IMG/VR virus record: IMGVR_UViG_3300033074_000977
Location: 1-64,000 of that record
From: a virus
Lineage: Duplodnaviria; Caudoviricetes
DNA: 64,000 nt
Strand: one strand, 5' to 3'
Both the position numbers and the translations under genes were made by a program. The notes beneath the pieces were generated by a model that saw only the letters and a program-made list of their open reading frames with translations, did no database searches and was not told where the DNA came from. Below are positions 29,717-61,185 of this stretch, piece after piece. The first letter of the stretch is position 1, and each line of letters starts with the position of its first letter.

Positions 29717-30430
29717 TTACTGTAATTTCCACCCCATCCCCATCATCGCCCCAATCGCCCAACCGGTGTGCTCACCCCTAGCCGGTCCATTCGGCTGAGT
29801 GTAGTTAGTCCGTTGCGTGAACACCTTCATGCGCACCAACCACTTACTGCGCTCAGCCAGGGGCAGATAAATATCCAATCCAAATCTATCACTGGCCACC
29901 TGATTCTGAGTTTGATTCTCTCGCAAGTAATGTTCCCAGGTGACTGCGTACTGATCGTTAAAGTTTATTCCCGCGCCTGCCACTCTGAACCACGCAGTTT
30001 TACTGTATCCACCTACCCCTGTGGTATGGTTATTAACTGCGGCCACACCGCCCAGCAGCAATGGACTTATCCTACGCTGCGGCAGCACTAACCATCTAAC
30101 CTGCCCCCAACCGCGCGTAGCAGTACCGTTCCCCAGGTAGCGTTTAGCGGCCAGCTCAAACTGCGCACCTCCCACCAACCGGATACTTTCAAACTCTTTA
30201 GGAACACGGACCACTCCCTCAAGGGTAATCCCTACGCCATCTGCATGCCCCGTACCGGGTGAGTGTGAATACGTAACCCCCGCCGTCACCGAGGGCTGCT
30301 GGGCACATACGTGACCAACAAGCGCAGTACCGCCGATACACACCCAACTAACCAGCAGGAGCAACGCAGCGATTCGGGAAGTAACTGCCGGTCGGACTCG
30401 CCTGCGGTTCTGTAGTTCGCTTGAGATCAC
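29717..30430 (-). CDS. putative outer-membrane beta-barrel protein
   Basis: Signal-like h-region (IAALLLLVSWVCIGG, VCA-QQ); alternating Gly/aromatic amphipathic strands; C-terminal GMGWKLQ. Confidence 0.6.
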   Translation of the reverse strand: MISSELQNRRRVRPAVTSRIAALLLLVSWVCIGGTALVGHVCAQQPSVTAGVTYSHSPGTGHADGVGITLEGVVRVPKEFESIRLVGGAQFELAAKRYLGNGTATRGWGQVRWLVLPQRRISPLLLGGVAAVNNHTTGVGGYSKTAWFRVAGAGINFNDQYAVTWEHYLRENQTQNQVASDRFGLDIYLPLAERSKWLVRMKVFTQRTNYTQPNGPARGEHTGWAIGAMMGMGWKLQ

Positions 30431-30446
30431 TGATCACCTTCCTTTG

Positions 30447-30716: not shown

Positions 30717-30720
30717 AAGC

Positions 30721-31032: not shown

Positions 31033-31070
31033 TGGGGGAGTCACCTTTGTGTTTAGGTTGTCAAGTCTAT

Positions 31071-41178: not shown

Positions 41179-44100
41179 TTAAATCTCCGCTCCCGCTTCC
41201 ATCCCAGTCGGCCCACCAAACGGCGTCACCGTCCGATACGCCTGCTCGAAGCTCCTACCCCAATCCGCCACCTTCACACACGAGCTATTAAACACCCGCA
41301 CACCGTCTGTATTCGCTAATCTAAACTGGTAGATTTTACCCTTGGTAGGGTCTAACCTCAAGTAATATCTTGCCATTACGCCCCCGGTGCTGGGGATTGG
41401 ATACGTATATGCCACCCCGTCTATCGTTACGGTAAGCGTAGTCTCGGAGTCACTCTCCAGGTCAATGTAGCTCTCCGCCACATGCTTCCACCCACAACTC
41501 CCAAGATCAGTCGGCGCGGTTTCCCAGACAGTCGCGGACTCGGGATACGGCGTGACAATCCAGGTAACATTATAGATCCGCCAGGGATCCGCATCGGTAG
41601 GTACAATCCTTACCAACCTGCTCTTACCCGGTACCTCCAGCGAGAAGCTCCGGGGATCCCCCTGGCCATCCTGCTGGGTAGTAAAGCTCCCTAACGTGGC
41701 CTCACCATCCCCCTGCACTTCAAAAGTGCGACTTACGCCCAGTGTGTCTGCCTCCAGCACAAACCCCAACACACGCTTCGTGCCCGGTGTCCCACAGTCA
41801 TCCCAGTCAGTTACACGTAGGTTACTCAGCTCGGGCCGCAGTAGTAAACTAGGTTCCCAGGTATACCAAACAAACCCGCCCCCGAACGCTGACTCGAATG
41901 TAAACCGTGCCCCCAGGTTGATCGCAAATAAATCTTCTGGCAGATCAAACCTGGGCCGATTGCGGCCGATCTCCAAGGTTATGGTATCGGTCTGGATTAG
42001 GTTAGTGAATTCGTTAGAGTATATCGCAACTTCCAGCTGATCACCCACGTCAGTAGCATCTAAGTTGCACTCGTAATCACCCCAGTGTTTCTGCGCACGA
42101 AACTCCCCAGCGTTGTATGCCATCGTATCCCATTGACACTCGAAGGCATCGCCGTAGTCTTGCGTTAGCACACCAGTTAACGTCCCGACTTTGCTAGCGG
42201 TAGCGCACACCATTCGGTAGTCGGAGCTGTTCGCACCGATAGCTGGGTAGCGACAGCGCACGCCCTGATCAGCGTATTCATCGTACATCCAGGCACCACG
42301 TTGGATGGTGAGTACTAGCGTGGCCATGTCGATGACCAGCTCATTTGGGCGATCTTGAATGAGGTAGTCGAAGTATAACATTCCGGATAACGCGCTGAGC
42401 CGGAGATACATATCCTGCGTCATATCCGGGGCTGGGATCTGGTTAATATCCTTGCCCGGGATCCCGTCATGCGGGAATAGTTCGTATAACGCTTCAGTGG
42501 TGAGGGAGGTAGGCTGCCCACCTTCCGAGTAGTAGATGCCATCCTTACTTACAAAATAGATCAGCTTATCCACACACAACGCCCACGGAGCTACCAGCCC
42601 GCGTGAGTTGGCGATTTCCTGTGGGACATAGGTGAGCGCGCCGGTGAGGTCGCGGGAAGCTGTCACCTGCCACATACGCTCACTGCTAAACACAAACACC
42701 CTGCCGTCGTACACGCAGCCGTTGATCAGCGGTTCGTTGGGTGGAGTTACTTCGATGTAGTTAGCGTCGGTAGTGGTGTTGGGGTCGTTTTCGTTGGTCC
42801 AGTATAAATAGCCCGGGTTAACTGGATCACCGCAGGCGAAATAGACCAGTGCTTCAGCTCCGGTTCCATACGGGCCAAACACGCGCGACAGTGGTTTTCC
42901 CAGTCTAATTGGCGAAGGGAAGTAGAAAGATGTTGTTGTAGCAGCTCCAGCTGAGGCGGCAAGCTCGATGTGGGTAGTGTCAGCGGGTTGCTTGTAGAGT
43001 AAATGCGTTTTTCCATTGATCACAACCTCCGTCCCAGGTGCCCAGGTGGTATCGAAAGTATCCCCAGACAGCCAGATCATTTTATTGCCTACAATCCTGC
43101 ACGTCCCACGCGCGGGTCGGCCAGCCGTAGCGAACGGTGCGTATAAGTTAAACCGCAGCAGTTGATTATTCGCTATACTCTCATCAGGTAAGTTATCGGT
43201 GAAAGTCGTAGTCGCACCTGCTGGGTTATCCACCTGTCCAACATACAACCATTGCTTCAGCGTGCCACCATAGCGGTAGATATTAAGTTTCGTAACCTGC
43301 GGATCCGGGTGTTTTGCCAGTTGGATTTGGTTCTGCTGCCGCCGTGACAAGACACCAACTCGGGTGGCGGGACTCGGCAGGGATTCATCGCCAGTCGTAT
43401 CATTCCAACCAGTATAGCGATAGTAATAAGCATCAGAGAAAACTGTCGGAGAGCTGTAGCTATCCAACGCATATCCACCTCCAATCCACCAACTGCTAAT
43501 GGCACAGTCAACCGTAGCAGGCGTGGCCAGCTGCGTCAGCTGGAAGCTCGCCATAACCGCCGTGACATTCTTCAACGTCCGCGAACGATCCGTACCTACC
43601 CGCTGGAGATCCTTTACCTTGACGGTAAGTTGGTACCACTGCTCCTTACCAGACCCGATCTGAAACAACGGTTCGTTCTGATCGTTAACTGATACCCCAT
43701 ACCGATCCTGGAACTTCTTGAGGATTTCCCGTTTGTTCCCTGCGAATAGCCCTTTGGTCGTATCACCGAACCCAGACTTCAACGCACGAAAATCTGCTAA
43801 TGCCTGGTCATAGCTGATCAGCTTCCCGGTTTCGTTATCGCGGACTAAAGTGTTCGGTCCAGCGTTGAACTTATCGTAAATGGATTTCTGGATCCGCCCG
43901 GGAGTGGCACCGACCAACGAGGTGGCCAGCTGAAAGTCAGCGTAGGATTGTAAGTCAGCAGCGCGGGCTGCGTAGAAGTAGTAGTTACGGGAAAGGTCAG
44001 TACCCGCGTAGGTATTTAGTATAGTTCCCGGATCCACGTCGAACCACAACCTTACCTCAATCAGCCGGTTGATGTCCTGGATGTATAACCCAATACTGAT

Positions 44101-45243
44101 CTCATCATCCTCGGTGATGGTCTTGCCGCCGACCTGGGTGATGTCGCGCGGGGCGTTAAGGCGGATATTCCCGATCCCCGCGGGTGTGCCCACAGTTGGG
44201 TCAATAGTGGTCTGGATGGATTTGCAGACCAACGTATGCGCAGCTGCTAAGGTTGTAGTAGTGTAGCAGCGGAACGCCCCGAGTCCGACGACTGTGTGCC
44301 CAGCCGCAATGGTCGTAGTCGTACTAACCCGAATACAAGGTATGTTGTCAAGTCCGTCGATAACTTCGAGCACGCGTACTGGCTCAACGGCGTTGAGTAA
44401 CAGCATTGAGTTTGGTTGCAAGCCTGCGGTAGCTGCGGTAAGTTGTATCGTACAGAGTCCGGTCGTGCCGGTATCATACTCAATCGCCTCCACGGTAGTA
44501 TCTGAAATCGCAGGCAACACCTGTTCAACCAGTACATACTCAGCTGAATTAGCGAACAATCGCATGTTCGGCTGGATGTCTTTGCCCATCGCAGCTGGTT
44601 GGATTAGGCAGTACCCCGTAGTGCCCGAGTCGTAAAGTATTCGCGTGATGGTAGTGTTGGTTCGGTTAACCAACGACAGCGCGCCCGCTCCGACTGAATT
44701 ATTCCAAGTCGCACCATCCTGGGTTAAGTTGGTGCAGTCAGTAACACTTAACATCTTAGCTGGGTCAGGGTTGAGCAATGTCGGTCCCTGCATTGGCGGC
44801 GCAATACCCCAGTTACGCACAGAGCTATCACTCCCTACCGCGACCATCTTGTTCTCGTCACCTACAAATAACCAGGGATCCGGGGTACGTTCAGGTCTAC
44901 CCACCACTCCGGTTAACGGATGTCCTGAGAATCCGGTAGCGACTGGCGTAACCAGATCGTCACTGGTGAATAAGTTCGTGCCTGCGCCGTAGATAAACGG
45001 ATACTGTGAGTTGTAGTTATCTTGTAGCTGGAAGATCGAATGCACGCCCGCCAGCTCATGGAGTAACTCCAACCCCGGACGAGGCTGTAACCCGCCCCGG
45101 TTGTAGCTGCGGATGTTTTTCACATAGGGGTGCCGGTCGTCAGCGAGCTGGTCGATGGGGTTGGTTAGGTCTAACCCCTTGCCAGCTTTGACCGTCGCAC
45201 GTTGAAATGGTTGGCCGATCCCACGACCGAACTCTCTGCCCAT
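41179..45243 (-). CDS. tail nozzle/DNA stabilisation protein (P22 gp10/T7 gp12-like) with insertions
   Basis: Beta-propeller-like segments (YFVSKDGIY, RVFVFS, YWTN); size and position after the adaptor. Confidence 0.6.
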   Translation of the reverse strand: MGREFGRGIGQPFQRATVKAGKGLDLTNPIDQLADDRHPYVKNIRSYNRGGLQPRPGLELLHELAGVHSIFQLQDNYNSQYPFIYGAGTNLFTSDDLVTPVATGFSGHPLTGVVGRPERTPDPWLFVGDENKMVAVGSDSSVRNWGIAPPMQGPTLLNPDPAKMLSVTDCTNLTQDGATWNNSVGAGALSLVNRTNTTITRILYDSGTTGYCLIQPAAMGKDIQPNMRLFANSAEYVLVEQVLPAISDTTVEAIEYDTGTTGLCTIQLTAATAGLQPNSMLLLNAVEPVRVLEVIDGLDNIPCIRVSTTTTIAAGHTVVGLGAFRCYTTTTLAAAHTLVCKSIQTTIDPTVGTPAGIGNIRLNAPRDITQVGGKTITEDDEISIGLYIQDINRLIEVRLWFDVDPGTILNTYAGTDLSRNYYFYAARAADLQSYADFQLATSLVGATPGRIQKSIYDKFNAGPNTLVRDNETGKLISYDQALADFRALKSGFGDTTKGLFAGNKREILKKFQDRYGVSVNDQNEPLFQIGSGKEQWYQLTVKVKDLQRVGTDRSRTLKNVTAVMASFQLTQLATPATVDCAISSWWIGGGYALDSYSSPTVFSDAYYYRYTGWNDTTGDESLPSPATRVGVLSRRQQNQIQLAKHPDPQVTKLNIYRYGGTLKQWLYVGQVDNPAGATTTFTDNLPDESIANNQLLRFNLYAPFATAGRPARGTCRIVGNKMIWLSGDTFDTTWAPGTEVVINGKTHLLYKQPADTTHIELAASAGAATTTSFYFPSPIRLGKPLSRVFGPYGTGAEALVYFACGDPVNPGYLYWTNENDPNTTTDANYIEVTPPNEPLINGCVYDGRVFVFSSERMWQVTASRDLTGALTYVPQEIANSRGLVAPWALCVDKLIYFVSKDGIYYSEGGQPTSLTTEALYELFPHDGIPGKDINQIPAPDMTQDMYLRLSALSGMLYFDYLIQDRPNELVIDMATLVLTIQRGAWMYDEYADQGVRCRYPAIGANSSDYRMVCATASKVGTLTGVLTQDYGDAFECQWDTMAYNAGEFRAQKHWGDYECNLDATDVGDQLEVAIYSNEFTNLIQTDTITLEIGRNRPRFDLPEDLFAINLGARFTFESAFGGGFVWYTWEPSLLLRPELSNLRVTDWDDCGTPGTKRVLGFVLEADTLGVSRTFEVQGDGEATLGSFTTQQDGQGDPRSFSLEVPGKSRLVRIVPTDADPWRIYNVTWIVTPYPESATVWETAPTDLGSCGWKHVAESYIDLESDSETTLTVTIDGVAYTYPIPSTGGVMARYYLRLDPTKGKIYQFRLANTDGVRVFNSSCVKVADWGRSFEQAYRTVTPFGGPTGMEAGAEI

Positions 45244-46613
45244 TACTTCCTACCTCCCACACTAACCATCCCAGTTTCGTCCAGCTTACCTTCATCCTGC
45301 CACCGAGGTTTAGACTGTTGATCCGTAGTAGCACGTTTCTTGAATAACCATAGATCCGTCACGCGTGCTTGTAACCGTTGGTTGAACTCCATCGCGGCTT
45401 CGAGTAAATCCTTATAAGCACCAATAGTCATGGCGAACTCTGCACCGGAAGTTTTCAACAGCGCTAGGTGGTGCGCGAAGTCCACCAGCAGCTCATGGTA
45501 CTCCCTGGGCAGCTGCACTGTGTCTGCATCATCGACCAGCAACGGCGGCTGCGACTGCACTTCCACTGTCAACGTCAACGGTGTATTCGCCAACTGCGCA
45601 CTGGTTGGTTGCGGCACCACGATCAAATGATTCCAGCTAACCATCCCCACCACCGCAGGCAACCCCGGTGTGTTATGCCAGCGTGGCCGACGCGCCGCCA
45701 CATCTTTCACTCCACCTACCACAATTGGCCGACCATTCAACCAGCAGTTATACACCGATGGATAATTCCGTCCCAGCACTAAGCTATCTTCATACCTGCG
45801 CGCGCAGTATTCAGCCCGGTGTGGATCCCGACACTGCCCATCGAATTCAAACTGATCTTGCAGCATCGAATACTTCAATACCCAATCCAACGATGGTGGG
45901 ATAGGTAGCGGGTCCGCGTCTAGGTCATCCTGCGTAGGTAGCTGTAAGTTGAATATCGCTAGCTTGCCTATATCCTCTGGTGGGGGGTACAGACGCACCG
46001 AGTTAACCGGCTGCGTCAAACTCACATATCCACGTGGTTGACCGTTGGTAAAGTAGGTAGTGTAGTTAACCTGATCCGATTGCGTCTCACGTAGTTCAGT
46101 GTAGTAATGCGTCGCAGGGGTGGGCGTAGGTTCGGCTTTCCATTCCGCATGCCGTAGTTCCAGATTCCGCTCGGGCAACGCTACCACTTCCTGTCCAGCT
46201 AACTCCTGGTAGGTGGTGATCAACCCAGTATCACGTAGCCATTGTTCGTAGTTCGCGCGCAACGCGAACTTCATCCCATCTATCTGCGGGCTAGGGTATT
46301 GATCTAAGAACGTAGCCAGAGTAGCCGGTTCCAGCATTACCTGCTTGGCGCGTGCGATTAAGCTATCTGATAAGGCTGTATAAGCCAGCGGTGATGCAGT
46401 TAGGGTAGGTAGGTCGTAGATGGCTTGACCAGCTACTAACGGTATATCGTAACGTTCAGTCCAGTACCCACTGAACGCCTGCCATGTAGTCAACGATTCA
46501 TTAAGGTAGCCAGTTAGTTCATCCTCCACCCAAAACACCATTCCGGGATCGCCTAACTTTCCAGCTAAACGCTCCCGGAGGGTTTGTAGAGTTACTTCAG
46601 TATACACACTCAT
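45243..46613 (-). CDS. head-tail adaptor protein
   Basis: TLQTLRERL...D....W..DEL..YLNE N-terminal helices; P.EYHELLVDFA..LA C-terminal motif. Confidence 0.65.
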   Translation of the reverse strand: MSVYTEVTLQTLRERLAGKLGDPGMVFWVEDELTGYLNESLTTWQAFSGYWTERYDIPLVAGQAIYDLPTLTASPLAYTALSDSLIARAKQVMLEPATLATFLDQYPSPQIDGMKFALRANYEQWLRDTGLITTYQELAGQEVVALPERNLELRHAEWKAEPTPTPATHYYTELRETQSDQVNYTTYFTNGQPRGYVSLTQPVNSVRLYPPPEDIGKLAIFNLQLPTQDDLDADPLPIPPSLDWVLKYSMLQDQFEFDGQCRDPHRAEYCARRYEDSLVLGRNYPSVYNCWLNGRPIVVGGVKDVAARRPRWHNTPGLPAVVGMVSWNHLIVVPQPTSAQLANTPLTLTVEVQSQPPLLVDDADTVQLPREYHELLVDFAHHLALLKTSGAEFAMTIGAYKDLLEAAMEFNQRLQARVTDLWLFKKRATTDQQSKPRWQDEGKLDETGMVSVGGRK

Positions 46614-47010: not shown

Positions 47011-47514
47011 TTACGTAGCTAAGTAGACTTGGACCGTACCACCGCCAGCAGTGATAGCGGTAATACGGATCCGTACCTTACCGTATCGGCCTGGGATGTT
47101 TACCTGCTGCCATTTGGGGGAAGCTACAGAACCGTCGTCGGTAAAGTCGATGGTGGTTACTTGCGCCCAGCTGGCACCGGAAACCGCGAAGGGTGCGGTT
47201 TCGACGGCGATGGTATAGGCGGATACACCGGTGGAGGAGTATACCGCTACGGTGAGGTTGGGCTGGTTGCTGGCGTCATAAATGTCCGAGGTAACGGTCG
47301 TGCCGAAGTCGGAGGTCGCGCCACTGTTGACCTTCTTCCAGCTTGACCAGATGAGGGGTGGGGTGGCGTTGGTTTGGGCGTGGGCTATGGAAGTAACGCG
47401 CGCGTCCAACTCAGCTATTTTCTTGGGTACCCACGCCTGAAATGCGGCTACTAAACTAATAACCAGCACGCAAATTGCCACAAACTTTGCTACTTTATAT
47501 TTCTCTGGCTGCAT
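47011..47514 (-). CDS. exported/membrane-anchored beta-sandwich protein
   Basis: h-region FVAICVLVISLVAAF; later AHA-QT; beta-rich body. Confidence 0.6.
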   Translation of the reverse strand: MQPEKYKVAKFVAICVLVISLVAAFQAWVPKKIAELDARVTSIAHAQTNATPPLIWSSWKKVNSGATSDFGTTVTSDIYDASNQPNLTVAVYSSTGVSAYTIAVETAPFAVSGASWAQVTTIDFTDDGSVASPKWQQVNIPGRYGKVRIRITAITAGGGTVQVYLAT

Positions 47515-48050
47515 TACTGCTTACCTCCTTGGAGTTCCGGTTCCGCAAACGACCACTTGCCATCCTTATCCTGACTCGCTTCGCAAGTAGCACACTTGAA
47601 CTCTTTGCGCTGTGCCAGGATCCATTCGTTGATCTGCTTCATCGACGTAGCGAATTGACTATACAGTTTGCTCTGCCGATCAAACACCGCTGCACGGATG
47701 GTTTCATCCTGTGACTCGTAGATCTTGGGATCCGAGATATAGTTGAGCAACGCACGCTCGGAGAGGTTACGCTGATCTACTAACTGGGAGATCTTGGTAG
47801 CCAGGGCTTCGGGGAGGGGGTAGGATTTGCGGGCCGGAGCCAACGCTGAAACCGTGGGAGTAGGTAATGGGATGGTGGACGACACACTGTTATTTGACGG
47901 GCCGCTAACTACTGGTTTGTTATCCTGGGTCGCTGCGCCCACCCCCACTGGCTCACCCTTCGCCCACACGAACGCAATCACAGCCATTACGATGATCCCC
48001 AGGATCAACATTCCAATTTCTCGACGGGTTTGTTTATTTGACGTAGACAT
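47514..48050 (-). CDS. membrane-anchored protein (possible spanin-like)
   Basis: N-terminal TM, Pro/Ser linker, helical domain; directly after the endolysin. Confidence 0.5.
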   Translation of the reverse strand: MSTSNKQTRREIGMLILGIIVMAVIAFVWAKGEPVGVGAATQDNKPVVSGPSNNSVSSTIPLPTPTVSALAPARKSYPLPEALATKISQLVDQRNLSERALLNYISDPKIYESQDETIRAAVFDRQSKLYSQFATSMKQINEWILAQRKEFKCATCEASQDKDGKWSFAEPELQGGKQ

Positions 48051-48066
48051 TTCTATTCGACCTTCC

Positions 48067-48669
48067 TTATGTACTTGTTGTTGCAGTTAGCGGCGTCAGG
48101 GTAGGCGTCTGCTGGATACCGCTATCCAATCCCAACGCCGCCTTAGCCTTCTTAGTTCGTTCAATTCTATCACCGAGGCCATTACTTCCGCCATTGATTT
48201 TACGCGTAAGCCCAACAATATCATCAGCATCGGCAAATTTATTACAGTTGTTATCCTGCCAGAACAACCCCGCAGCTCTAAATCCATGCTCTGGAGTACT
48301 TAGCAGTTCCGGGTGGGCTACGCAGTCGATCTGTAATGCCTTGGCTACACGGGTATAGTTAGCCCGACCGGTGGTTTGAATCGGCCCACGCCCCATATAC
48401 CGCTTGCCATCCCCAGCCACCACGTTCCCCAGATCCAACCTGCCTTCATAGCGTAGCTGTGCCTTGGTTGGCCCCCATAGCTCTACCCAGTATTTCAGAT
48501 CCATACTCTCGTGCGCGAGCTGCCCGAGAAAATGAGCCGCGCGGAGGGGTGTGTTAATCCCAAACTCCTCCAGCGCGGCGTTCAACGGATCCAGGTATTG
48601 CTTAGCACGGGGTCGATCCAACCCCCGCATTGAACGGTAAAGTTGTTCTTCGGTTAGTTGGAAGGACAT
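48067..48669 (-). CDS. glycoside hydrolase family 19 endolysin
   Basis: R.AHFLGQLAHES; Y.GRG.IQ.TGR.NY; A..FW; TRKINGG.NG..DR. Confidence 0.9.
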   Translation of the reverse strand: MSFQLTEEQLYRSMRGLDRPRAKQYLDPLNAALEEFGINTPLRAAHFLGQLAHESMDLKYWVELWGPTKAQLRYEGRLDLGNVVAGDGKRYMGRGPIQTTGRANYTRVAKALQIDCVAHPELLSTPEHGFRAAGLFWQDNNCNKFADADDIVGLTRKINGGSNGLGDRIERTKKAKAALGLDSGIQQTPTLTPLTATTST

Positions 48670-48796
48670 AGTTAGTTAAGCTCCTTTGATACGTTAATTA
48701 CGTCACCACAGTAATCGTCTGTGCTTCTTCAGCCAACGGCATACAGATCCATTTCGTGCCGTCACAAACGATATGCCAGATGTTACTATCTGTGTG

Positions 48797-49810
48797 CTAA
48801 TTCTGTGTGGCAAAACAGCGCCACACACCATTGAGCCGGACAGCAAGTGCCCCATTGCCACCTGACGTGCAGGTATTGTCTGCTCCGCTTGTTACCTGAC
48901 AATCGGTGCAGATCGCAAACGTGTTTGCGGCTGTGCCTAAATTGGCAAAGGCTACACCGTTGTCATTGCCTAGAACTCCGGTTGCCCTCACGCTAAACCG
49001 TATATCACCCGATGCTGTGCCGCCGCGCACAGACAGCAGCTTGCGATTTACGATTGAACTTAACGTTCCATTATTGGGGTCGCTTGCACTGTCTGTGCGA
49101 AACGCGGCAAGATCAAGCAGTCCGAAAGTTGATGAGTCGCTAGCGTCACTAGCGGCGCTTGTCATTGCACGAAATTGAAACCCTGACTTATCCGCATCCA
49201 CCTGATAACCAGCAGCCATCGCTACTAACGCGGCATCGGTGCTAGTGGCATTGCCTAAATACAGGGCGTTATTTCCTGCGTCGCTAACTGTGCCTTTGAG
49301 AATTTGCTCGCGTATGCCCGACCCGGAGCTAATTGTGACTAATACCGAGCCGGTGCCTTTTGGTGCAAGAATTAAATTTTCATTGCTCCCGCTGCTTGTG
49401 ACTCCAAGGGTTATACCACTCCCCGCCGCCGCCCCCGTCACCTTCACCCCAGTAGCTTCACTTGCTACCGAGCAATCCACGGCAAACGTTGGATTCGTGC
49501 TCCCATTCGGCCCCACCGCCATACAAGGGTTACTGGTACTCGTAACGATAACCGGTGTGCTGAATGAGCTGCTACCCGAGAACGTTACAGTCACCGTCTG
49601 CCCAGCCCTCGTCAAACTCCCATTCGGAAACACCAACGTCTGCGTCCCAGGCACATTTGGAGATCCATCTACCTCTTTAACACGCACGCCACTACCTGCT
49701 GGGTAGTTTCCTCCCCCTGATTGTTGGGCATAACTGGATAGCGGTAAAAGTACTGCAATCATAAATAGATTGAGTACTGCGGTAATTAAGTGTCTGTACA
49801 TAAAAATCAT
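48797..49810 (-). CDS. tail-fibre-like protein with N-terminal signal peptide
   Basis: ATG 49810 after GAGGAG; LITAVLNLFMIAVLLPLSSYA-QQ; Gly/Ser/Thr beta-rich fibre segments. Confidence 0.6.
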   Translation of the reverse strand: MIFMYRHLITAVLNLFMIAVLLPLSSYAQQSGGGNYPAGSGVRVKEVDGSPNVPGTQTLVFPNGSLTRAGQTVTVTFSGSSSFSTPVIVTSTSNPCMAVGPNGSTNPTFAVDCSVASEATGVKVTGAAAGSGITLGVTSSGSNENLILAPKGTGSVLVTISSGSGIREQILKGTVSDAGNNALYLGNATSTDAALVAMAAGYQVDADKSGFQFRAMTSAASDASDSSTFGLLDLAAFRTDSASDPNNGTLSSIVNRKLLSVRGGTASGDIRFSVRATGVLGNDNGVAFANLGTAANTFAICTDCQVTSGADNTCTSGGNGALAVRLNGVWRCFATQN

Positions 49811-49824
49811 GAGCTGACTCCTCA

Positions 49825-51828
49825 TTAGTTTTGAATTACAGTGGCTCGTACTGTCGCAGCCGCAGGATTTGAGCCATCAGCACTGATGACGCAACGCCGC
49901 ACGCTGACGGTATTTGGAGCCGAGCGCCATGCAGTGAAGGTGGCAGTCGAGTTATGGCTTTGCAGCGCATTGGGTACACCAAGTAAAATCGTGTCGCCAT
50001 CTGCCGCGCTAGTTACGGTGAGAGTAAGCGTTTCGCAAGTGTTTGCGCTTGCCTGGGCATAATCAAGCGAGCCTGTGCCAGACAGGATCGTTGATACATC
50101 CGCCCCCGATGACCCAAGCTTCAGCTTGCCACCTGAAAAGGTTACGCGGTTGTTGGCAAGGTCGGGAATAAACCCCACCTCTGCGTAGTTCGTGCCCGCT
50201 GCCCCACCGTTCCAAAGCAGTGTCTGACCACCAATCGCAAATGGCGAGGTGTATGTTCCCGGTGCCGGGCCACCGTTCTGAGTCGTTACAGCATATGCCC
50301 CTATGCCACCCCCACTGTTTGGTCCACCATTACGATAGTAAACGTTACCATTTATTGTGAGACGCGAATTGGCGACATTTATTCCAGCGCCTTTCAGCCA
50401 GTCTGCCCTAGTAAAGTAATTTCTCTGAAAGCTCTGACTAAATACCGTGCCAATTCCATTGTCTATCTCGACCCGTCCAAAACCGAATTGGTTTAGCCGG
50501 AAGTCGGCCATCCCCGACACGTATACTTCGTTGTAGTCATACTGCATCCACGTCACGGTGCCATCCGTAACGATGGCACCAATCCGGTAGGTCGCGCCTG
50601 AAACTGTTGTCCCTGCCGCTGCTCCCAATGTCCACTGGCTGTCGTTGGTGTAGGTCGCCATGGTAGTATAGAGGTTCGCCCCTGCCACCCCGGCCCCATT
50701 GACCACGATGCCGTAATTTAGATAACTGCTATACAAGCTCCCGCAACCCGCACAGGTAAAAGTAGTACCTGATGCGGTTATTGCACCGTTAGCCTCGTAA
50801 GCTACATTTGTAGCTGGCCACGACGGTTCACTAGCCGCCGAAGTACCCGAACCGATACAGATGTAGTATTTCCCATTGCCATTGCCCGAGGTTTTCCCTT
50901 TGACAAGTGTGCCTAGCGAATAGGCGGTTGATTGTGCCCACTCATTTATACCTCCAGCAATGATGTTGTTATTCACCACGTCTACCGTGTGGTAGGCCGA
51001 TACATACAGAAACGCTGCCGACTCGCTCCGACAATCTCGAATAGAAGAATGGTCGTTAGCCGACTCCTGAATCCGAATATCCCAGCCGCCCGCCTCTAAG
51101 GCAGCCCGCACGCCGCCATTGGCATTCTGGAACCCGACCGAGTAGACGTTCACCGAACCATAAGCGACATCTATCCCGTATTTACAGCTTTGGAAATTGC
51201 CTCCAACGAAGGTGTTTTGTAAGGCGTTGGCTCCGCCAGAATAGAAGCCTGCGGACAGTGCGGACTGAAAGTGACAGTTGATAAAGAGATTCTCCGACCC
51301 TTGTGCCTGTCCACCCCCCGTGCGCGTTACGGCAAAGGCATGTGTGGCCCTGCTTGCCGCATCAAAATAACAATCTCGAAACGTATTTCCCTGTGTGCCG
51401 ACATGATTGGAGCCGTCATAGTCTCCGTCTAATTCAACACATGCCCCGGTACGATTATCAAGCACCAGAAAATAAATGCCTTCAAAGGTGCAATACTGCG
51501 CGCCGTTGGTTTGTAGGGCAGGACTGCCGCCAAAGCCAGCCAATACCGAATTGTAGCGGCCCGACCCTTTCAGCTTCACTCCATAACCCAGCGTAAGAAC
51601 TGCATTGGCTTTGCAGGTGCGTGGCGGGAAAAGGACTTCCCCGCCACCCGCCGCGACTGCCGCTGCAATGGCTTTATTGACGGCTGTGGTGTCGTTCGTG
51701 GAGCCATCGCACTTGGCACCGTACTTAACAACATCATAGGTCTTGTAGGTGGACTGCGCGCCCGTGTCACCTGTATAGACGAGGGTCACTAGCAGCATGA
51801 TCCCGATTAAGATAATAAATTGCTTCAT
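49825..51828 (-). CDS. tailspike/depolymerase (pectate lyase 3-type beta-helix) with N-terminal signal peptide
   Basis: YDVVKYGAKCDG..NDT.A...AI.AA...GG..V.FP motif, beta-helix repeats; MKQFIILIGIMLLVTLVYTGDTGA-QS. Confidence 0.75.
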   Translation of the reverse strand: MKQFIILIGIMLLVTLVYTGDTGAQSTYKTYDVVKYGAKCDGSTNDTTAVNKAIAAAVAAGGGEVLFPPRTCKANAVLTLGYGVKLKGSGRYNSVLAGFGGSPALQTNGAQYCTFEGIYFLVLDNRTGACVELDGDYDGSNHVGTQGNTFRDCYFDAASRATHAFAVTRTGGGQAQGSENLFINCHFQSALSAGFYSGGANALQNTFVGGNFQSCKYGIDVAYGSVNVYSVGFQNANGGVRAALEAGGWDIRIQESANDHSSIRDCRSESAAFLYVSAYHTVDVVNNNIIAGGINEWAQSTAYSLGTLVKGKTSGNGNGKYYICIGSGTSAASEPSWPATNVAYEANGAITASGTTFTCAGCGSLYSSYLNYGIVVNGAGVAGANLYTTMATYTNDSQWTLGAAAGTTVSGATYRIGAIVTDGTVTWMQYDYNEVYVSGMADFRLNQFGFGRVEIDNGIGTVFSQSFQRNYFTRADWLKGAGINVANSRLTINGNVYYRNGGPNSGGGIGAYAVTTQNGGPAPGTYTSPFAIGGQTLLWNGGAAGTNYAEVGFIPDLANNRVTFSGGKLKLGSSGADVSTILSGTGSLDYAQASANTCETLTLTVTSAADGDTILLGVPNALQSHNSTATFTAWRSAPNTVSVRRCVISADGSNPAAATVRATVIQN

Positions 51829-51831
51829 AGA

Positions 51832-54800
51832 TTAGAACCGCGATATTACATACCAATTAGTCCCATTTGATTGGATAGCTACACCCTCATAAGCCGAGGA
51901 AAGGACAATGGTAAGATTACCATCTATTGTTTCCGTAGAATTACCGTCAATCGTAACTGTGTTGACTCCACCGTCTATCTTCTTCACTACCAGGATTCGG
52001 CCCGACATTGTAGAAGCGGCAGGCAGATTTACAGTCTGACTGGCGGAGGTCGGGTCGCAAAGAATTGTCGTATCAGTTGTTGTCGCTGTTACGGTGGCTG
52101 ACGTGGACGAGCGCAGCCCTACACCAAACCCCTGACTGACTGACAATGAGCCGGTGATAGCCACCCCGGTGGACGATGCAGCCAGGGTATCAACATTCGT
52201 TGAGCCTGACGTTTTAGTTCGTAAAATTACTGTTGCATTGTCGTTAGGGTAGATATTGGCTAAATAGGCTTTTGTATTGCCTGTAGCATCGTAGCTGAAT
52301 TCCAGGCCGTAGGAGCTAAGCACTCCGCCGATTTGCGTAGTGGACGAGATAAAGCCCGTGCCAACAACGTGCAGTTTTGTGGATGGCGATGTCGTACCAA
52401 TGCCCAATCCAGTGGCATTCAAAGTAGTCAGCGCTACGTTATTAACACCGTTAGTTATTTTTGCACCGGAGGTATTCGCATTGATGAAGATCCCGGCAGT
52501 TGCCAGAGATTCAGATTGGATGAACACCTGTTCAGCTACGGTTGGGCCTGATGTTGCAAATCCCGATGAGCGAATACCTACGCGTAGATAGTTGCCAGTG
52601 TCGTTGACAAAATCAAATTCTGATGTAGCCGCATTGCCGTTTGAAGAGTTTGTAAAACTGGGGCCAGTAGCTGCGTTGGAAGAAACCGTCGTGGCAGTTG
52701 CCAATAACGTACCGCTGGTTGGCAGTGTTACATTTGTGTTATTGGTAGTAGTTAAAGTTAATGAATACGCACCAGATGTAGCAAATGCGCCTGCGGTAGT
52801 AAACGCTCCAGCAGTAGTTAGCGCACCAGTGGTAACTAAATCTCCGCCTAGAGATAACCGCCGCGCGGCGTCTTGGACTTGGATGGTTAAGATACGATTG
52901 GCGGTTAGGGTTTCGTTAGCCAGAAAGCGAATCGAGAAAGCTCCAGTACCGGAGTTAAAGGTGGATAAATTAGTAACAGCTGTGATTGATCCACCCGTGA
53001 TAGTTGGAGATGTGCCAAAGACCAGCGCACCAGAGCCGGTTTCGTCAGATAAGGCACCTGAAATACCTGCTGATGTGGTTAGTCCTGTGAAGGCTGATGT
53101 ACCGTTGCCGAGCAAGATGCCCGTTAGAGTCGCTGCGCCAGATCCACCGCGACTAACTGCCAATGTACCCGCCCAGGTCAATACATGTGCCGAACCGCCA
53201 CTTACGATTGTAACGTTCGTGTCGTTGGTAAAAGTCTGCGGATCGGCTGTCAATCCATTTAGCGTGGTAATACCAGTGCCACCTGCACCTGTCTGATCCG
53301 TGCCACAAGAAAACGTCTGTGTTCCGTTATCGTATAAAAGCTTCGAGGTAGTCGCATTGGAACATGACGGTAAAGTCTTCAGTGCCCCGGTATTAACTCC
53401 AGTCCCTACCAGCACCTCGTTTGCTGCCCAAGTACCCTGACCCGTGCCGCCTCTAGTTAATCCTAACGTACCGGTAGTTAGTGCGGCAGTGCTGATTCCC
53501 CCAGTACCCACAGCTGTTACGACACCCGTGGTACTCATTCCGATTCCGTTAGATCCGTTTACGATTTGTAGCGGCGTAGTAGAGTCAGTTGATATCGTAA
53601 AGGTGGTTGAATTGAACCCTAGTTTACCATAGGTGGTGTTGGTATTGTCATTCCTTACATAGATAGATCCAGGCCCGACGTTAACTTCCGACCAACGGAG
53701 CGCCGAAGTCCCCAGCGCGTATAAGTTATCTGAAGTTGGGTTAATGGATGTGGTGGATAGCGTGGAAGTAAAAGTCTTAGCCCCGGCGTAGGATTGGGTG
53801 CCGTTGTTAACCAACCCTTGGGCGCAGGTTGTGCAGGCGTCGTTGAGGTTGAGCGTGATGGTACCCGAGCCGGTGATCGGGTTGGTACCGGATAAATTCG
53901 GCGCAGTGCCGGTAGTGCCCAAGGCCAGCCCAACCGACGTAACTGTTCCCCCGCCGCCTCCGCCCCCTCCGCAACCGAAGCTATTAACCACACCGTTAGC
54001 GTCGACACAGACTGTGCGGGTGCCCGTACCGATCCCATTTACCAACGTCAATACCGCGTTCGATTGCAGTGTCCCACCGCGTAACTCGGTGATCGGTTCG
54101 TCTTCATCATAGGTAGCTTTGGTGCCGTAGAGTAACCTGAAATTCGCCACCCTAAATACTGCCGCGTTTGCGCCCTGGCCGCATTCGATCTGGACTTTCA
54201 GGGTACGGCCGGTGCCCGCTCCGATTCGCGTGGTAATGGATCCACGTTCCCAACGCTCGATGATTCGACCCTGCGCAGCTGAAGGGTTGTAGCCAAATTG
54301 TCCGGTAGTACCTACGGATGGGATAAGTTTAACCCGCAGCTCGTTATAAGTAGCCCCAGAAGTAATCGCATCCGCGCCACGGCTTACAATGTAGAAATCA
54401 AACCCGAGTGTGACTGTCTGATGTTCAGCCACCCCATCCGGTACATTGATCGTCTGCGACATCTGTTCGGCATAGGCATTCCCGCCCCCAGTGGTGGGTG
54501 CGACTTCGATATAGCGCAAGCCCCGGTCTGTGCCAGCGTTAACGGCAGTCAACGCCCCTGGAGCAGTTTGTGTCCATGATGTCAGTCCACGCGCGAACGC
54601 ACCGTTAAGCAGCAACCCACGCCCGAATACAGTGCTATAGAGATCGGCAGTGTCGTAGGCTGGTCCGGAGTTGGTTCCTTCCAGGTAGCGCACGCCAAGG
54701 CCGATCTTCGGTGGATAGAAATCCGGCGTCGAGTCAATGGTGTTGCCATAAAGGATCGACTGCGGTGAGGTGAGGGTGGTGTTGTCTACGGTAACCCCAC

Positions 54801-56961
54801 GCGTGCCGTTTTCCAGATAGATGTCCGCTGCGGCGTCACCAGCTGTGCCGATATAGCTACCTTCGTCGATCTTAGCCCCCTGGACGTTGTTCAACCGCAA
54901 CCCGATAGTATAACCGGTAGGGGTACCGTTCGCGCCAACGTTCGAGTTTAGGAAGCTAAACCCACGCACTGAACTGGCCATCACTGCTGCGCCACCTGAA
55001 CCACCGTTCCCTTCCACCCAGATCGATCGATGTGTAATCTGGTCGGAGTTCTCGTACAGCGCTGCGTAAACCTCATCGCCAGTGGTGGAGTTCGTCCAGT
55101 TCCCTTGCCAAGTGCCACCGTCGATGGTGATGTTATTAGCGTTGTTGGTGTAAACCTGCGCGAACGCGCGTGGGTAGAGGGTAGCTGTGAGTCCGGTTGT
55201 GGCAATCCACGGGGGTTGCGATACCTCAAAGGATGTGCTGCTGATAATGCGTGTGATTAAGGCAGTGTGCTCGGTTTGGTTAACTGACGCACCAGTGATC
55301 TTGACCAGCCGGTAGAGGTCGGTTGAGCTGACTGAGCCGGATGTAACAGTGATGACATTGGACGCCGTACCAATGGTTACGCCGGAGGTGTTATGTGCGC
55401 CTGCTGTGGTGACTGTAATAGTACGACGCTGGTTTGACGGCAGCACTGTGGAGTACTGAAAAAACGTATCTCGGATTGTGTTGGCGTTAGGTTCGGTTTG
55501 TGATCCCAAGCCTCTTACATTGGACGTGGCTGGAAGAAAAATCCCGTTGTTACAGTAATAGCAGCTAAAATCCTTGATCGAACTAGACTGCATGTTATCC
55601 GAGATAATCCCATACTTGAACCCAATCCCGCGCACCTTGTCGAGCTTAACTGCGGTTGCGCCAGACTGCGGCACCCCCTCCGAGTTGTACTGATCCGATT
55701 GCAGATATAGCGCAGCACCGGTATCAGTGTAATCCGGAGTTTGCAACTGGTAGCGGTTCGCGTGAAACAGGCCGATATTGCGCAGGTTGAGATTAAGTAA
55801 GTTAGTTCCGGCTGCTTTAAGTAAATGGCCTGGACCCGTCATGATAAACGCAGACCGGTATTCAGCCGACCCTTCGATTATCCATTGTTCGTTGCGGGCT
55901 TCGGAGGGACTTGGGATGGCTAGCGCGTAAGGGTGCGCGGAGTCATAGTCGTAGAATGAACTAACTGGAATCCAGCCATCTGGTAATTGAAGCGTGCCGG
56001 AAGTATATGTATTGAAGAACACTCGCAGCGCTGCGGTGTCATCGTGCTGAATAAAGTCAATCGAATTTGCGTTACTAACTGCGGGCGTAAAGGTTAAGGT
56101 ATTCCCGCTGACCGCCGTAACCGTTGCAATTAGATCCACCCCATTGCTCACCCCATCCGGTATGCGGATCCCTTGACCCACTTTCCATGTGTTAAGTGAG
56201 TTGGCGTAGTAGCGTAAGGGGTAGTAGGATTGGGTGGAGGTATCTGCGGTCGGTCCAAGATTAACAGTCTCCGCAGTAATCCCGGTCATCGTGACTGAGG
56301 TAGCACCTACCGCAATCAACCCGGTCACTAGGTATAGCCGGGGATCTGCTGACACCCCCAGATCAGTGACCGCGTTATACACCCCGGTCGGAGTGCGCTT
56401 CGTCGACAAGCTACTTGCGGTACGGGCAGCATCATCCACCGCCGTCAGAAAAGGATTCGGCAGGTCGATCTTATTCCGCTGGGGATCCAGAGTAGTACCT
56501 AGATTGCTCAGCTGCAACGTCCCGGCACCCAATGCCAAATCTGTCCGCCAGAAGAATGGTGTAGTTATATTATTTGGTGCGGTACCGCCACTTAACTGCA
56601 CATCAAGTCGCTGCGCAACGGAGCTGTAGAACTCGAAGTAGCCATTTGCATCGGCTGTGAATGGATTGGACTTAGCTCCATACGAGCTATTACTATAGAT
56701 AGTTTGCAGCGTCGAAGTGCCTGTTCGGTAAACTGTAACAGTACAGCTCGGGTAGGATTTCTGCACCGTAGTCGTGCTGGTCTGACCTGCTGTAGTAACT
56801 TTCTGCCCGCCCCGTTCGCAGTAACCGGATACCTTTTCGACGGTAGTTTGGGCATGGGCAACCGTTGCAAGGGAGGATGATCCGAGGGGGATGTTACACG
56901 TGAAAGAGACGGTTAAAAGTAATACACAGGCTATGAGCAGCCAGCACAGACTACGGTACAT
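51832..56961 (-). CDS. long tail fibre/tailspike (1709 aa) with beta-helix domain and N-terminal signal peptide
   Basis: NPFTADANG..FY attachment-type segment; HDDTAAL..F beta-helix start; GGTG fibre repeats; C-terminal T..LPAA...G....K.......IDG...DG.NW domain; N-terminal h-region ending AHA-QT. Confidence 0.75.
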   Translation of the reverse strand: MYRSLCWLLIACVLLLTVSFTCNIPLGSSSLATVAHAQTTVEKVSGYCERGGQKVTTAGQTSTTTVQKSYPSCTVTVYRTGTSTLQTIYSNSSYGAKSNPFTADANGYFEFYSSVAQRLDVQLSGGTAPNNITTPFFWRTDLALGAGTLQLSNLGTTLDPQRNKIDLPNPFLTAVDDAARTASSLSTKRTPTGVYNAVTDLGVSADPRLYLVTGLIAVGATSVTMTGITAETVNLGPTADTSTQSYYPLRYYANSLNTWKVGQGIRIPDGVSNGVDLIATVTAVSGNTLTFTPAVSNANSIDFIQHDDTAALRVFFNTYTSGTLQLPDGWIPVSSFYDYDSAHPYALAIPSPSEARNEQWIIEGSAEYRSAFIMTGPGHLLKAAGTNLLNLNLRNIGLFHANRYQLQTPDYTDTGAALYLQSDQYNSEGVPQSGATAVKLDKVRGIGFKYGIISDNMQSSSIKDFSCYYCNNGIFLPATSNVRGLGSQTEPNANTIRDTFFQYSTVLPSNQRRTITVTTAGAHNTSGVTIGTASNVITVTSGSVSSTDLYRLVKITGASVNQTEHTALITRIISSTSFEVSQPPWIATTGLTATLYPRAFAQVYTNNANNITIDGGTWQGNWTNSTTGDEVYAALYENSDQITHRSIWVEGNGGSGGAAVMASSVRGFSFLNSNVGANGTPTGYTIGLRLNNVQGAKIDEGSYIGTAGDAAADIYLENGTRGVTVDNTTLTSPQSILYGNTIDSTPDFYPPKIGLGVRYLEGTNSGPAYDTADLYSTVFGRGLLLNGAFARGLTSWTQTAPGALTAVNAGTDRGLRYIEVAPTTGGGNAYAEQMSQTINVPDGVAEHQTVTLGFDFYIVSRGADAITSGATYNELRVKLIPSVGTTGQFGYNPSAAQGRIIERWERGSITTRIGAGTGRTLKVQIECGQGANAAVFRVANFRLLYGTKATYDEDEPITELRGGTLQSNAVLTLVNGIGTGTRTVCVDANGVVNSFGCGGGGGGGGTVTSVGLALGTTGTAPNLSGTNPITGSGTITLNLNDACTTCAQGLVNNGTQSYAGAKTFTSTLSTTSINPTSDNLYALGTSALRWSEVNVGPGSIYVRNDNTNTTYGKLGFNSTTFTISTDSTTPLQIVNGSNGIGMSTTGVVTAVGTGGISTAALTTGTLGLTRGGTGQGTWAANEVLVGTGVNTGALKTLPSCSNATTSKLLYDNGTQTFSCGTDQTGAGGTGITTLNGLTADPQTFTNDTNVTIVSGGSAHVLTWAGTLAVSRGGSGAATLTGILLGNGTSAFTGLTTSAGISGALSDETGSGALVFGTSPTITGGSITAVTNLSTFNSGTGAFSIRFLANETLTANRILTIQVQDAARRLSLGGDLVTTGALTTAGAFTTAGAFATSGAYSLTLTTTNNTNVTLPTSGTLLATATTVSSNAATGPSFTNSSNGNAATSEFDFVNDTGNYLRVGIRSSGFATSGPTVAEQVFIQSESLATAGIFINANTSGAKITNGVNNVALTTLNATGLGIGTTSPSTKLHVVGTGFISSTTQIGGVLSSYGLEFSYDATGNTKAYLANIYPNDNATVILRTKTSGSTNVDTLAASSTGVAITGSLSVSQGFGVGLRSSTSATVTATTTDTTILCDPTSASQTVNLPAASTMSGRILVVKKIDGGVNTVTIDGNSTETIDGNLTIVLSSAYEGVAIQSNGTNWYVISRF

Positions 56962-59922: not shown

Positions 59923-61110
59923 TTAGATCACCGGTTGTAGACCGTAACCTTGACGGTTCAGGCGTGGTTCGAGGCAACGCGCGTTACCCGCGAAGTGGAT
60001 GCGACCGATTACGCGAGTCGTTAACGGATGCGTCATCCAGCCCGAGAAACCCATCGAAAACAGCGGAGATGCAGAGATGTCGAACAACCAAGAATCGCTG
60101 TTCAAAGCCCACATCGTATCGCCTACGGTGAGGACGGTACTGGTAGCGGGTTTTTGGAACGCAAACTCAGCGCTGATGTTGTCATAAGCAGTACCCGCAC
60201 CTGGGAGGGTGACAGTTTTGTTCAGGGTGTTGAAGTTACCGTAACCGACATCCGCACCGCGCAGGCCCGGAGCGTACTCATCAGCTACGATCAAGGCTTG
60301 CTGGAACTTGGTGCCGCCGATCACACCCCAGTAAGGATCGCGCTCGGATTGGACCAGCTGCTTGCCTTCGAGGACTGACCGGATACCGGCTGTGACGCCT
60401 TTGGTGGTGACGATCAGATCGGGGGATTGAGAACCCACGGTCGGGCCGTTGTAGCCGCCAGTGTACAGAGCTTCCAGTTCCTCGTAAGTCAGACGCTTGG
60501 TGCCACCGTTCGTGTCGCCCATCCAGCGGGGGATGGAGTTGAGGGCACGACCGACTTCCGAGCGGGACTGACCGCCATAGCTGGTCCAGACATTCGCGTC
60601 GTAGCCAGGAGTAACACCGTCGTTCAAAGCTTCTGGCATACCGTTGATATGCAGGCTGCGGTCTTCGACAGTCGCACCAAAGCTACCTGCGGAAGTGACG
60701 TTCTGACCGTGGAGATACATCATCACGCCGAGACGGGCAGAGAGCGAACTGATCGCAGCGCCGACCTGGACATCCAAAGTATTAGCCACGTTCAGCGATG
60801 AATCGCCCTGGACAACTTCGAGATTTTCGAGAAGATCCAGCAGCAACGCCACGTAGAACTTCGGATAGAAGTTATTGCTGGCGATGATCTGACGGCGGAT
60901 GGGGGTAAATTCACTGCCCGCGCGGTAAGCATCGGTCTGCACCGCGTCGAACAGGAACTGTTGCTGGATCGTGGTACCGCCCTTGAAGGCGCGGATCATG
61001 CCCTTCGCGCGCATATACGCGAGCAGTGGGGAATTCCCCAAGAAGAAATTATCGCGGATCTTGTTCGGGAAGATCAGCCTGCGAGTTACAATACTAAGTT
61101 CATCTAACAT
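59923..61110 (-). CDS. major capsid protein (HK97 fold)
   Basis: ATG 61110 after AAGGAG; D.FF..SPLL.Y...GG..I; GM..ALNDG; YGG..R; PDLIVT; position after the scaffold. Confidence 0.8.
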   Translation of the reverse strand: MLDELSIVTRRLIFPNKIRDNFFLGNSPLLAYMRAKGMIRAFKGGTTIQQQFLFDAVQTDAYRAGSEFTPIRRQIIASNNFYPKFYVALLLDLLENLEVVQGDSSLNVANTLDVQVGAAISSLSARLGVMMYLHGQNVTSAGSFGATVEDRSLHINGMPEALNDGVTPGYDANVWTSYGGQSRSEVGRALNSIPRWMGDTNGGTKRLTYEELEALYTGGYNGPTVGSQSPDLIVTTKGVTAGIRSVLEGKQLVQSERDPYWGVIGGTKFQQALIVADEYAPGLRGADVGYGNFNTLNKTVTLPGAGTAYDNISAEFAFQKPATSTVLTVGDTMWALNSDSWLFDISASPLFSMGFSGWMTHPLTTRVIGRIHFAGNARCLEPRLNRQGYGLQPVI

Positions 61111-61185
61111 TAAACGGCTCCTTATGTTAAGGGGGAGAGCCACCTGGGGGATCAGGGGGAGTTGCGTTATTTTACAGCAGCTACC

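Follow-up and report, generated by a model that had tools for sequence, protein, structure and literature searches.

Results

A signal-bearing block in a podovirus-type late operon

The 64-kb window analyzed here (positions 1 to 64,000 of the IMG/VR record IMGVR_UViG_3300033074_000977) is part of a 73,728-bp tailed-phage genome that CheckV calls complete. Our subject is a block of late genes in it, encoding proteins of 1709, 667 and 337 amino acids (aa), which had been predicted from the sequence alone to be tail fibres or tailspikes with Sec-type signal peptides that all leave an N-terminal Gln. The block lies in a podovirus-type late operon on the minus strand of the window. The operon runs from terminase, portal, scaffold and capsid (59923-61143) through proteins of 386 and 109 aa to the signal-bearing block, and continues with an adaptor-like protein, a nozzle-like protein and internal virion proteins of up to 2139 aa before ending in three small membrane proteins and a 237-aa barrel (Table 1). 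A search of IMG/VR with the capsid protein found no close relatives.

Table 1. Features of the signal-bearing block and its surroundings, with related genes on other sequences.
Feature	Sequence	Positions	Strand	Basis
Tail fibre/tailspike precursor, 1709 aa	window	51832..56961	-	Open reading frame (ORF) and start; N-domain family; match to fibre of contig L002
Fibre signal peptide, residues 1-37, predicted AHA/QT	window	56851..56961	-	n/h/c layout; AF2 helix; relatives
Head-binding (particle-docking) domain, residues 41-140, Cys48/Cys73	window	56542..56841	-	Profile; Foldseek; VIA-align
Signal-bearing right-handed beta-helix, glycanase-like protein, 667 aa	window	49825..51828	-	PF12708; PHROG; cellular relatives
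Signal of 667-aa protein, residues 1-24	window	51757-51828	-	Predicted
342-aa ORF, probable start Met6 (49810), giving 337 aa	window	48797..49825	-	GAGGAG; homologues
Signal of 337-aa protein, residues 1-28	window	49727-49810	-	Predicted
GH19-type endolysin	window	48067..48669	-	PF00182 and phrog_181, E=2e-66
178-aa protein, N-terminal membrane/signal segment, helical body, C-terminal CxxC (small helical group)	window	47514..48050	-	ORF; N-terminus
167-aa protein, probable signal anchor and beta domain	window	47011..47514	-	Hydropathy; L002 homologue
Adaptor-like structural protein, 456 aa, without signal	window	45243..46613	-	phrog_399; homologue Tunturi_1 gp30; adjoins fibre gene in relatives
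Nozzle-like virion protein, 1354 aa, without signal	window	41179..45243	-	PHROG virion proteins; Tunturi_1 gp31
Outer-membrane beta-barrel, 237 aa, signal residues 1-43, +1 Gln	window	29717..30430	-	PF13505 homologue; AF2; Foldseek
Small signal-bearing helical protein	L002	13476-13892
Small signal-bearing helical protein	L019	14832-15269
Small signal-bearing helical protein	L020	13743-14057
Small signal-bearing helical protein	L082	5138-5921
Cellular homologue of 667-aa enzyme	L037	9683-11374		Signals mostly followed by Gln in the three homologues
Cellular homologue of 667-aa enzyme	L039	9692-11140
Cellular homologue of 667-aa enzyme	L038	7130-9247

Three consecutive late proteins begin with signal peptides

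We took as a signal a basic n-region, an uncharged h-region of about 8-20 residues and small residues at positions -3 and -1; cleavage sites were assigned from the -3/-1 rule with rule-based scripts and by comparison with relatives. The N-termini and ORFs quoted in the original prediction are all present in the sequence as given there, and the three large proteins have distinct n-, h- and c-regions, unavoidable starts, and a small-x-small site followed by Gln. The 1709-aa protein opens with MYR and a 17-residue hydrophobic core that leads to ...VAHA/QT (a slash marks the predicted cut), and the 667-aa protein has a 24-residue signal ending in TGA/QS, with AQS/T as an alternative site. Neither ORF offers a usable start past the hydrophobic segment: the first has a single start, with GGAG ten bases upstream, and its next in-frame start is codon 66, inside a folded domain, while codons 15-80 of the second hold no start at all. 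In the third gene, a 342-aa ORF, a Shine-Dalgarno sequence (GAGGAG) lies ahead of Met6 and gives the predicted 337-aa form, whose signal ends in ...SSYA/QQ. The signal of the barrel ends in ...HVCA/QQ. The hydrophobic cores are uncharged, with best 8-residue Kyte-Doolittle means of 3.3-3.7; the n-region has a net charge of +1 in the three large proteins and +4 in the barrel, and small residues occupy -3 and -1 at each site (AHA/Q, TGA/Q, SYA/Q and VCA/Q).

The genes of the three large signal-bearing proteins follow directly on one another, and a signal-type N-terminus is missing from every head, adaptor, nozzle and internal virion protein among the 88 greedy ORFs of the 73.7-kb genome. Signal N-termini are present far beyond chance. 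Furthermore, cysteine makes up 1.25% of the three signal-bearing proteins and 0.50% of the other late proteins (2.5-fold, Fisher p=1.3e-4) and sits mostly in close pairs, in keeping with the earlier remark that paired cysteines are frequent. Because the gene calls used here are mechanical ORFs, wrong start codons or chance hydrophobic N-termini could be suspected. Such an artefact is highly improbable given that downstream starts are missing and that the feature is repeated in thousands of protein clusters and in curated records of cultured phages, as described below.

We therefore consider the identification of Sec-type signals on all three proteins to be well supported at the sequence level, because the signals are kept in function while their sequences drift (in the 1709-aa and 337-aa families), because signal-less relatives begin at the predicted mature end, because the presence of a signal tracks that of a cysteine pair, and because the signal of the phage's own outer-membrane barrel is built alike.

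A probable tailspike-type docking domain lies behind the signal of the 1709-aa protein

The 1709-aa protein consists of the signal, a head-binding domain, a beta-helix region, a Gly run, fibre repeats and a C-terminal knob. A virion-attachment segment had been proposed just after the cleavage site, and this can now be refined to a P22-type tailspike head-binding fold. An AlphaFold (AF2) model of the fibre N-terminus (mean predicted local distance difference test score 77) has a helix at residues 3-18, a low-confidence linker and a beta sandwich at 41-140. A profile of 15 domain sequences gave weak matches in the PDB to the 'Tailspike head-binding domain' of cyanophage Pam1 (7EEQ, E=0.003) and to the Pan3 tailspike (9VYG, E=0.014-0.018), and Pam1 (7eeq) and Pan3 (9vyg) were also the top four Foldseek matches of the model. 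VIA-align superimposed the domain on that of Pan3 with Z 9.0 and a root-mean-square deviation of 2.1 A over 79 residues, on Pam1 with Z 8.0, and on P22 gp9N and Sf6 gp14N, both solved on tail hubs, with Z 7.1-7.3; tailspike N-domains filled nine of its top 12 rows. Sequence and modelled fold thus agree, at modest scores, and point to the tailspike head-binding class.

The distal parts of the protein are fibre-like as well. A fibre on the 69-kb contig L002, which has its own signal, is 61-64% identical over residues 1006-1419, and for the C-terminal 76 aa a Thermocrinis virus has a counterpart, 45% identical, that carries the annotation 'T7 tail fiber protein'. We read the 1709-aa protein as a tailspike or fibre in which a docking domain follows the signal. 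Like the tailspikes P22 gp9, Sf6 gp14, Pam1 (7EEQ) and Pan3 (9VYG/9VYH), it would carry a beta-sandwich docking domain at the mature N-terminus, with a beta-helix and distal modules behind it, and its gene stands among podovirus tail genes. However, those tailspikes have no signal peptide and are assembled in the cytoplasm, whereas here a Sec-type signal of 20-37 residues precedes the domain and the domain contains a cysteine pair.

The signal-bearing N-domain belongs to a large, probably viral family

A phmmer search with residues 38-150 of the 1709-aa protein against 1.84 billion representatives (E<=0.001) found the N-domain in 2574 protein clusters. We classified the best 150 of these, of which 139 could be assigned by a simple motif anchor; 130 of these 139 have a signal-like extension ahead of the domain, and the predicted mature end mostly falls 5-9 residues before the first strand. 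In the few forms that lack a signal, the initial Met stands five residues ahead of this strand (MQKLQG...). Both Cys48 and Cys73 occur in 112 of the 130 signal-bearing forms and in three of the nine signal-less ones (odds ratio 12, p=9e-4). In 14 IMG/VR loci from unrelated phages, the N-domain starts directly at Met1 (MQKY...) and the cysteines are absent, while relatives of the 1709-aa protein retain a signal of different sequence. A search with a 5-sequence alignment found no N-domain in 185,579 bacterial and archaeal species genomes; because of this, we read the family as viral and mostly lytic. An alignment of 15 N-domain sequences proved too heterogeneous to serve for such a pattern scan.

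The domain occurs in 18 further IMG/VR loci, most of which share portal, capsid, adaptor-like and nozzle-like proteins with the present phage at 25-34% identity. In these relatives the adaptor and nozzle genes flank the signal-bearing fibre gene or adjoin it on one side, and more signal-bearing fibre-like genes often come after it; L002 encodes another fibre with a signal, and a barrel homologue too. From gene position and synteny, we infer that the N-domain of the 1709-aa protein binds the tail hub.

These observations bear on the main alternative, in which the signal-bearing proteins are exported but are not part of the virion and act on the envelope of the infected cell, where they could cut capsule or exopolysaccharide (EPS) to free progeny, destroy or mask receptors and so keep progeny from being lost to cell debris, or exclude superinfection; particle recognition would then fall to the nozzle-like protein. 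Homologues of that protein have 1250-1400 aa, far more than T7 gp12, which is compatible with such a role. Cells also make comparable structures: the mosaic adhesive trimer (MAT) fibres of Bdellovibrio are phage-fibre-like cell-surface organelles with a signal, a conserved, beta-rich N-domain of about 130 aa and variable trimeric modules (PMC10769870). They resemble the present proteins in published architecture, but they are organelles of a predatory bacterium and are not encoded in a phage structural operon (PMC10769870). For the 1709-aa protein, however, the N-domain matches head-binding domains solved on tail hubs, the same N-domain heads signal-less fibres of unrelated phages, and exchange of the C-terminus behind a constant N-terminus is what characterises a docking part. 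In addition, the fibre gene stands between adaptor and nozzle genes and is the sole fibre candidate in several relatives. We consider an accessory, non-virion role for the block as a whole to be rather unlikely, though it is the foremost competitor to a virion role.

Cultured Tunturi phages share the trait

tblastn against GenBank phages found a match in Tunturi_1, a phage of the soil bacterium Tunturiibacter (Acidobacteriota). Its terminase, portal, capsid, gp30 and gp31 are 25-28% identical to those of the present phage and lie in the same order, with gp31 aligning to the 1354-aa nozzle-like protein at 28% identity over 873 aa. Tunturi_1 gp12, gp13, gp14 ('tail spike'), gp16 and gp17 ('virion structural protein') have signals, followed by Gln in four of the five, and gp12 has the same N-domain as the 1709-aa protein. 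These signal-bearing proteins contain 10-32 cysteines each, except the small gp16 (2); among proteins without a signal, gp36 and gp37 have none and gp31 has 7 in 1307 residues. The 1184-aa gp17 (L018 19474-23028) has a signal ending in ...LAGA/QT and 32 cysteines.

Signal-bearing, Cys-rich proteins also occur in the siphovirus Tunturi_4 (gp113 and gp114) and in the jumbo myovirus Tunturi_5 (gp338-342, two of them annotated 'tail fiber'), and in these phages, too, virion proteins without a signal are poor in cysteine. As podovirus, siphovirus and myovirus all have the trait, its distribution in these sequences follows the host group and not one phage lineage. Signal-bearing and signal-less fibre-type proteins can coexist in one phage, because Tunturi_4 gp111 (L081 10434-13172), a 'tail fiber' by annotation, lacks a signal and the adjoining 'tail protein' and 'virion structural protein' have one. 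Tunturi_1 thus resembles the present phage in its block of signal-bearing, Cys-rich fibre or spike proteins and in its adaptor-like and nozzle-like genes, but the genomes and distal fibre parts of all three Tunturi phages differ from those described here. The publication of Tunturi 1, 4 and 5 (PP887698, PP885687 and PP885688) nowhere mentions signal peptides or proteomics (PMC11924767).

An outer-membrane barrel serves as an internal control

The 237-aa protein at the end of the operon returned nothing in its own Pfam scan at E<=0.01. A homologue carries PF13505, the AF2 model of the 237-aa protein has 10 strands, and all top Foldseek matches of the model are outer-membrane barrels such as OmpW, NspA, Ail and OpcA; Gln44, at +1, is invariant in 7 sequences. 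On the strength of the model, the protein is an outer-membrane beta-barrel and an internal control for functional host-type signals. Because such a barrel must pass through Sec and has the same A/Q signal design as the fibres, the host would be a diderm and the phage would write working host-type signals.

This control is informative about a second alternative, in which the hydrophobic N-termini do not lead to export. The fibres would assemble in the cytoplasm, and the segment would act as a membrane tether, timing device or assembly aid and later be kept or cut off by another protease. Such a view would fit classical tailed-phage assembly, which is entirely cytoplasmic, as well as an overload or shutdown of Sec late in infection, and the c-region of the 1709-aa signal is indeed atypical. 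Set against this are the canonical -3/-1 sites and +1 Gln shared with the phage's own barrel, an obligate export, the cysteine pair that tracks the signal, very hydrophobic cores that favour co-translational targeting, and the position of a helix left uncleaved, which would lie on top of the docking domain. We regard retention in the cytoplasm as improbable, and export of the signal-bearing proteins as very likely the best reading of the sequences.

Gln follows the predicted cut at four sites in the present phage and, when a crude rule is applied, is the commonest +1 residue of the fibre family, at 31 of 130. By a crude count, it follows the signal in 10 of 18 proteins (56%) of an Acidobacteria metagenome-assembled genome (MAG), 13 of 28 (46%) of a Chthoniobacterales MAG and 8 of 28 (29%) of E. 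coli, where it comes largely from AQA motifs; the MAGs do not differ significantly from E. coli (p=0.12 and 0.27, respectively). As these counts are not significantly above the E. coli control, we make no claim of a Q-rule in the host. Three MAGs resembling candidate hosts lack glutaminyl cyclase type I (PF05096), which is uninformative. In Bacteroidetes, the Q-rule denotes signal peptidase I signals that expose Gln (PMC5837995). Porphyromonas phages encode signal-peptide proteins of unknown function that obey it and that have been read as envelope modifiers (PMC10367356); they share with the proteins described here phage-encoded signals exposing Gln, but no tail parts are named among them and the host phylum is another (PMC10367356).

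The 667-aa protein is doubtful as a tailspike

In the 667-aa protein, PF12708 scores 34.9 bits (gathering cut-off 27) from residue 32, so that some 8 residues separate the predicted cut from the beta-helix. Alignments to PHROG tailspike profiles set in only at profile positions 116 and 181, and neither they nor the Pfam alignment leave a docking domain ahead of the helix. tblastn against 50,697 phage records found no match to this protein. Its nearest relatives are signal-bearing proteins from Chthoniobacterales and Acidobacteria MAGs, about 40% identical over two thirds of its length, whose neighbours appear, by eye from their N-terminal sequences, to be glycosyltransferase-, sugar-nucleotide dehydrogenase- and flippase-like. 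Periplasmic glycanases such as AlgL, PslG and BcsZ are encoded in EPS operons, and in this context the cellular homologues resemble them: signal-bearing enzymes among glycosyltransferase, sugar dehydrogenase and flippase-like genes. The phage copy differs in having about 160 extra C-terminal residues and in lying in a virion/lysis operon.

The assignment of this protein as a tailspike, part of the original prediction, is therefore doubtful, since it lacks a docking domain and its nearest relatives are signal-bearing enzymes of apparent polysaccharide loci. The second option offered there, an exported stripper of capsule or EPS, fits it better, and here the non-virion role described above is the better reading. 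Most likely, the gene encodes a captured host-type periplasmic polysaccharide hydrolase. The homologues in polysaccharide loci hint at the source of the gene and perhaps at host range.

The 337-aa protein has, as judged from alignments, a docking-type architecture again, because a conserved mature N-terminus is joined to a variable C-terminus. Its homologues keep YA/QQSGGGNYP... behind a different signal, with the first 60 mature residues 83-92% identical, while their C-termini vary and total lengths range from 282 to 547 aa.

The expectation of an N-terminal Gln at every site held for the 1709-, 667- and 337-aa proteins and for the barrel, and failed for the 167-aa protein. There, a spacer of 21 residues, some with a charge, separates the hydrophobic segment from AHA/QT, and the beta domain aligns at 27% identity (E=6e-6) with an L002 protein of 115 aa in which that segment is missing. 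The protein is probably a signal anchor and not a cleaved precursor. The sequence encoding AHAQT is common to the 167-aa gene (47011-47514) and the 1709-aa fibre gene (56851-56870) at 13 of 14 nucleotides, too short a stretch to distinguish convergence from exchange.

Small neighbouring proteins and the lysis genes

Small (100-180 aa) signal-bearing helical proteins, one of them the 178-aa protein, adjoin signal-bearing fibre genes in several phages (Table 1), and two of them end in a CxxC...DGK motif. The 178-aa protein gave a weak match (E=0.17) to a signal-bearing 138-aa protein beside the L002 fibres, and members of the group could not be aligned convincingly with one another. As candidate roles we consider those of a fibre chaperone or an oxidoreductase in the periplasm.

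The endolysin has neither a signal nor a signal-anchor-release segment, and its N-terminus is not hydrophobic; without a signal on this enzyme, lysis needs a hole-forming holin. At the end of the operon (29717-31817, minus strand) is a 248-aa protein with an N-terminal membrane segment, a long helical body and a hydrophobic C-terminal end, accompanied by a holin-like protein of 117 aa with several membrane spans, a protein of 100 aa and the barrel. In L002 (2966-6650), the genes for the barrel and for the 248-aa and 100-aa proteins again occur as a group. No lipoprotein spanin is evident at the operon end, and a spanin-like, membrane-spanning pair with the barrel as outer partner is conceivable.

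Discussion

The claim of Sec-type signals and of maturation outside the cytoplasm is well supported by these comparisons; the part that gives way is the 667-aa protein as a tailspike. It is probable that in this phage the host-recognition proteins fold outside the cytoplasm, whereas particles are built inside it. In the model that we propose, three consecutive late proteins would be made as precursors and threaded across the inner membrane by the host Sec translocon. Signal peptidase I would cut each at its small-x-small site and leave an N-terminal Gln, and the mature proteins would fold, trimerise and form disulfides in the periplasm. Removal of the signal would place the P22-type head-binding domain at the new N-terminus of the 1709-aa protein, a virion tailspike or fibre, while the 667-aa enzyme would attack the envelope or EPS as a free protein or as one carried by another fibre. 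Heads, adaptor and nozzle, which have no signal, would be built in the cytoplasm. With fibres in the periplasm and heads and hubs in the cytoplasm, docking could occur only once the holin breaches the inner membrane, before or just after the outer membrane fails. What the sequences show is the anatomy of the signals, their conservation, the identity of the domains and the synteny; from these we infer export, cleavage, disulfide formation and the timing of attachment alike. The likely benefit would be the oxidative folding of long-lived, exposed proteins, a selective reason suggested by the cysteine pair that tracks the signal.

To our knowledge, all described tailed-phage assembly pathways are cytoplasmic. 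P22 tailspikes, however, are added last, and their addition to particles works in vitro; holin holes are large enough for particles, and cells remain bounded by the outer membrane until the last step of lysis. Docking at the membrane breach is a deduction, and a feasible one. Several points weigh against the model. A trimer of the 1709-aa protein must fit in the periplasm, and fibres that attach after the membrane breach risk being diluted. Host recognition could lie with the large nozzle, in which case the exported proteins would be accessories; the nozzle-like protein is also Cys-rich without having a signal. At 15 residues, the c-region of the 1709-aa signal is longer than usual, and for the docking domain Z scores of 7-9 lie where chance matches occur and the best profile E-value was 0.003. 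On balance, we would put the complete two-compartment scheme at somewhat below an even chance. A little more tentatively, it may extend to a large group of soil and wastewater tailed phages of diderm hosts, the Tunturi phages included, whose fibres would be Sec-exported, cut by signal peptidase I, disulfide-bonded, perhaps pyroglutamylated, and docked when the holin opens the membrane.

Among the results examined in full-text literature searches, we found no published account of signal peptides on tailed-phage fibres or tailspikes; the nearest items are the Q-rule proteins of Porphyromonas phages (PMC10367356) and the MAT fibres of Bdellovibrio (PMC10769870). New here are a P22-type docking domain behind a signal, in a family of 2574 clusters, and the presence of the trait in cultured Tunturi 1, 4 and 5. 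Also new are signal-less relatives that start at the mature end and mostly lack the Cys pair, the position of the genes among the adaptor and nozzle genes of one podovirus lineage, and a 667-aa 'tailspike' with no docking domain that is closest to signal-bearing enzymes of polysaccharide loci.

With Tunturi_1, a phage whose host can be grown in culture, the question is open to direct test. If host-recognition proteins are indeed periplasmic across a widespread group, this would change when and where infectivity is gained and would bear on how lysis timing is coupled to assembly. For structural work or engineering, such fibres would have to be expressed in an oxidising compartment with the signal removed. 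The annotation of receptor-binding and 'secreted' viral proteins in metagenomes would be affected as well.

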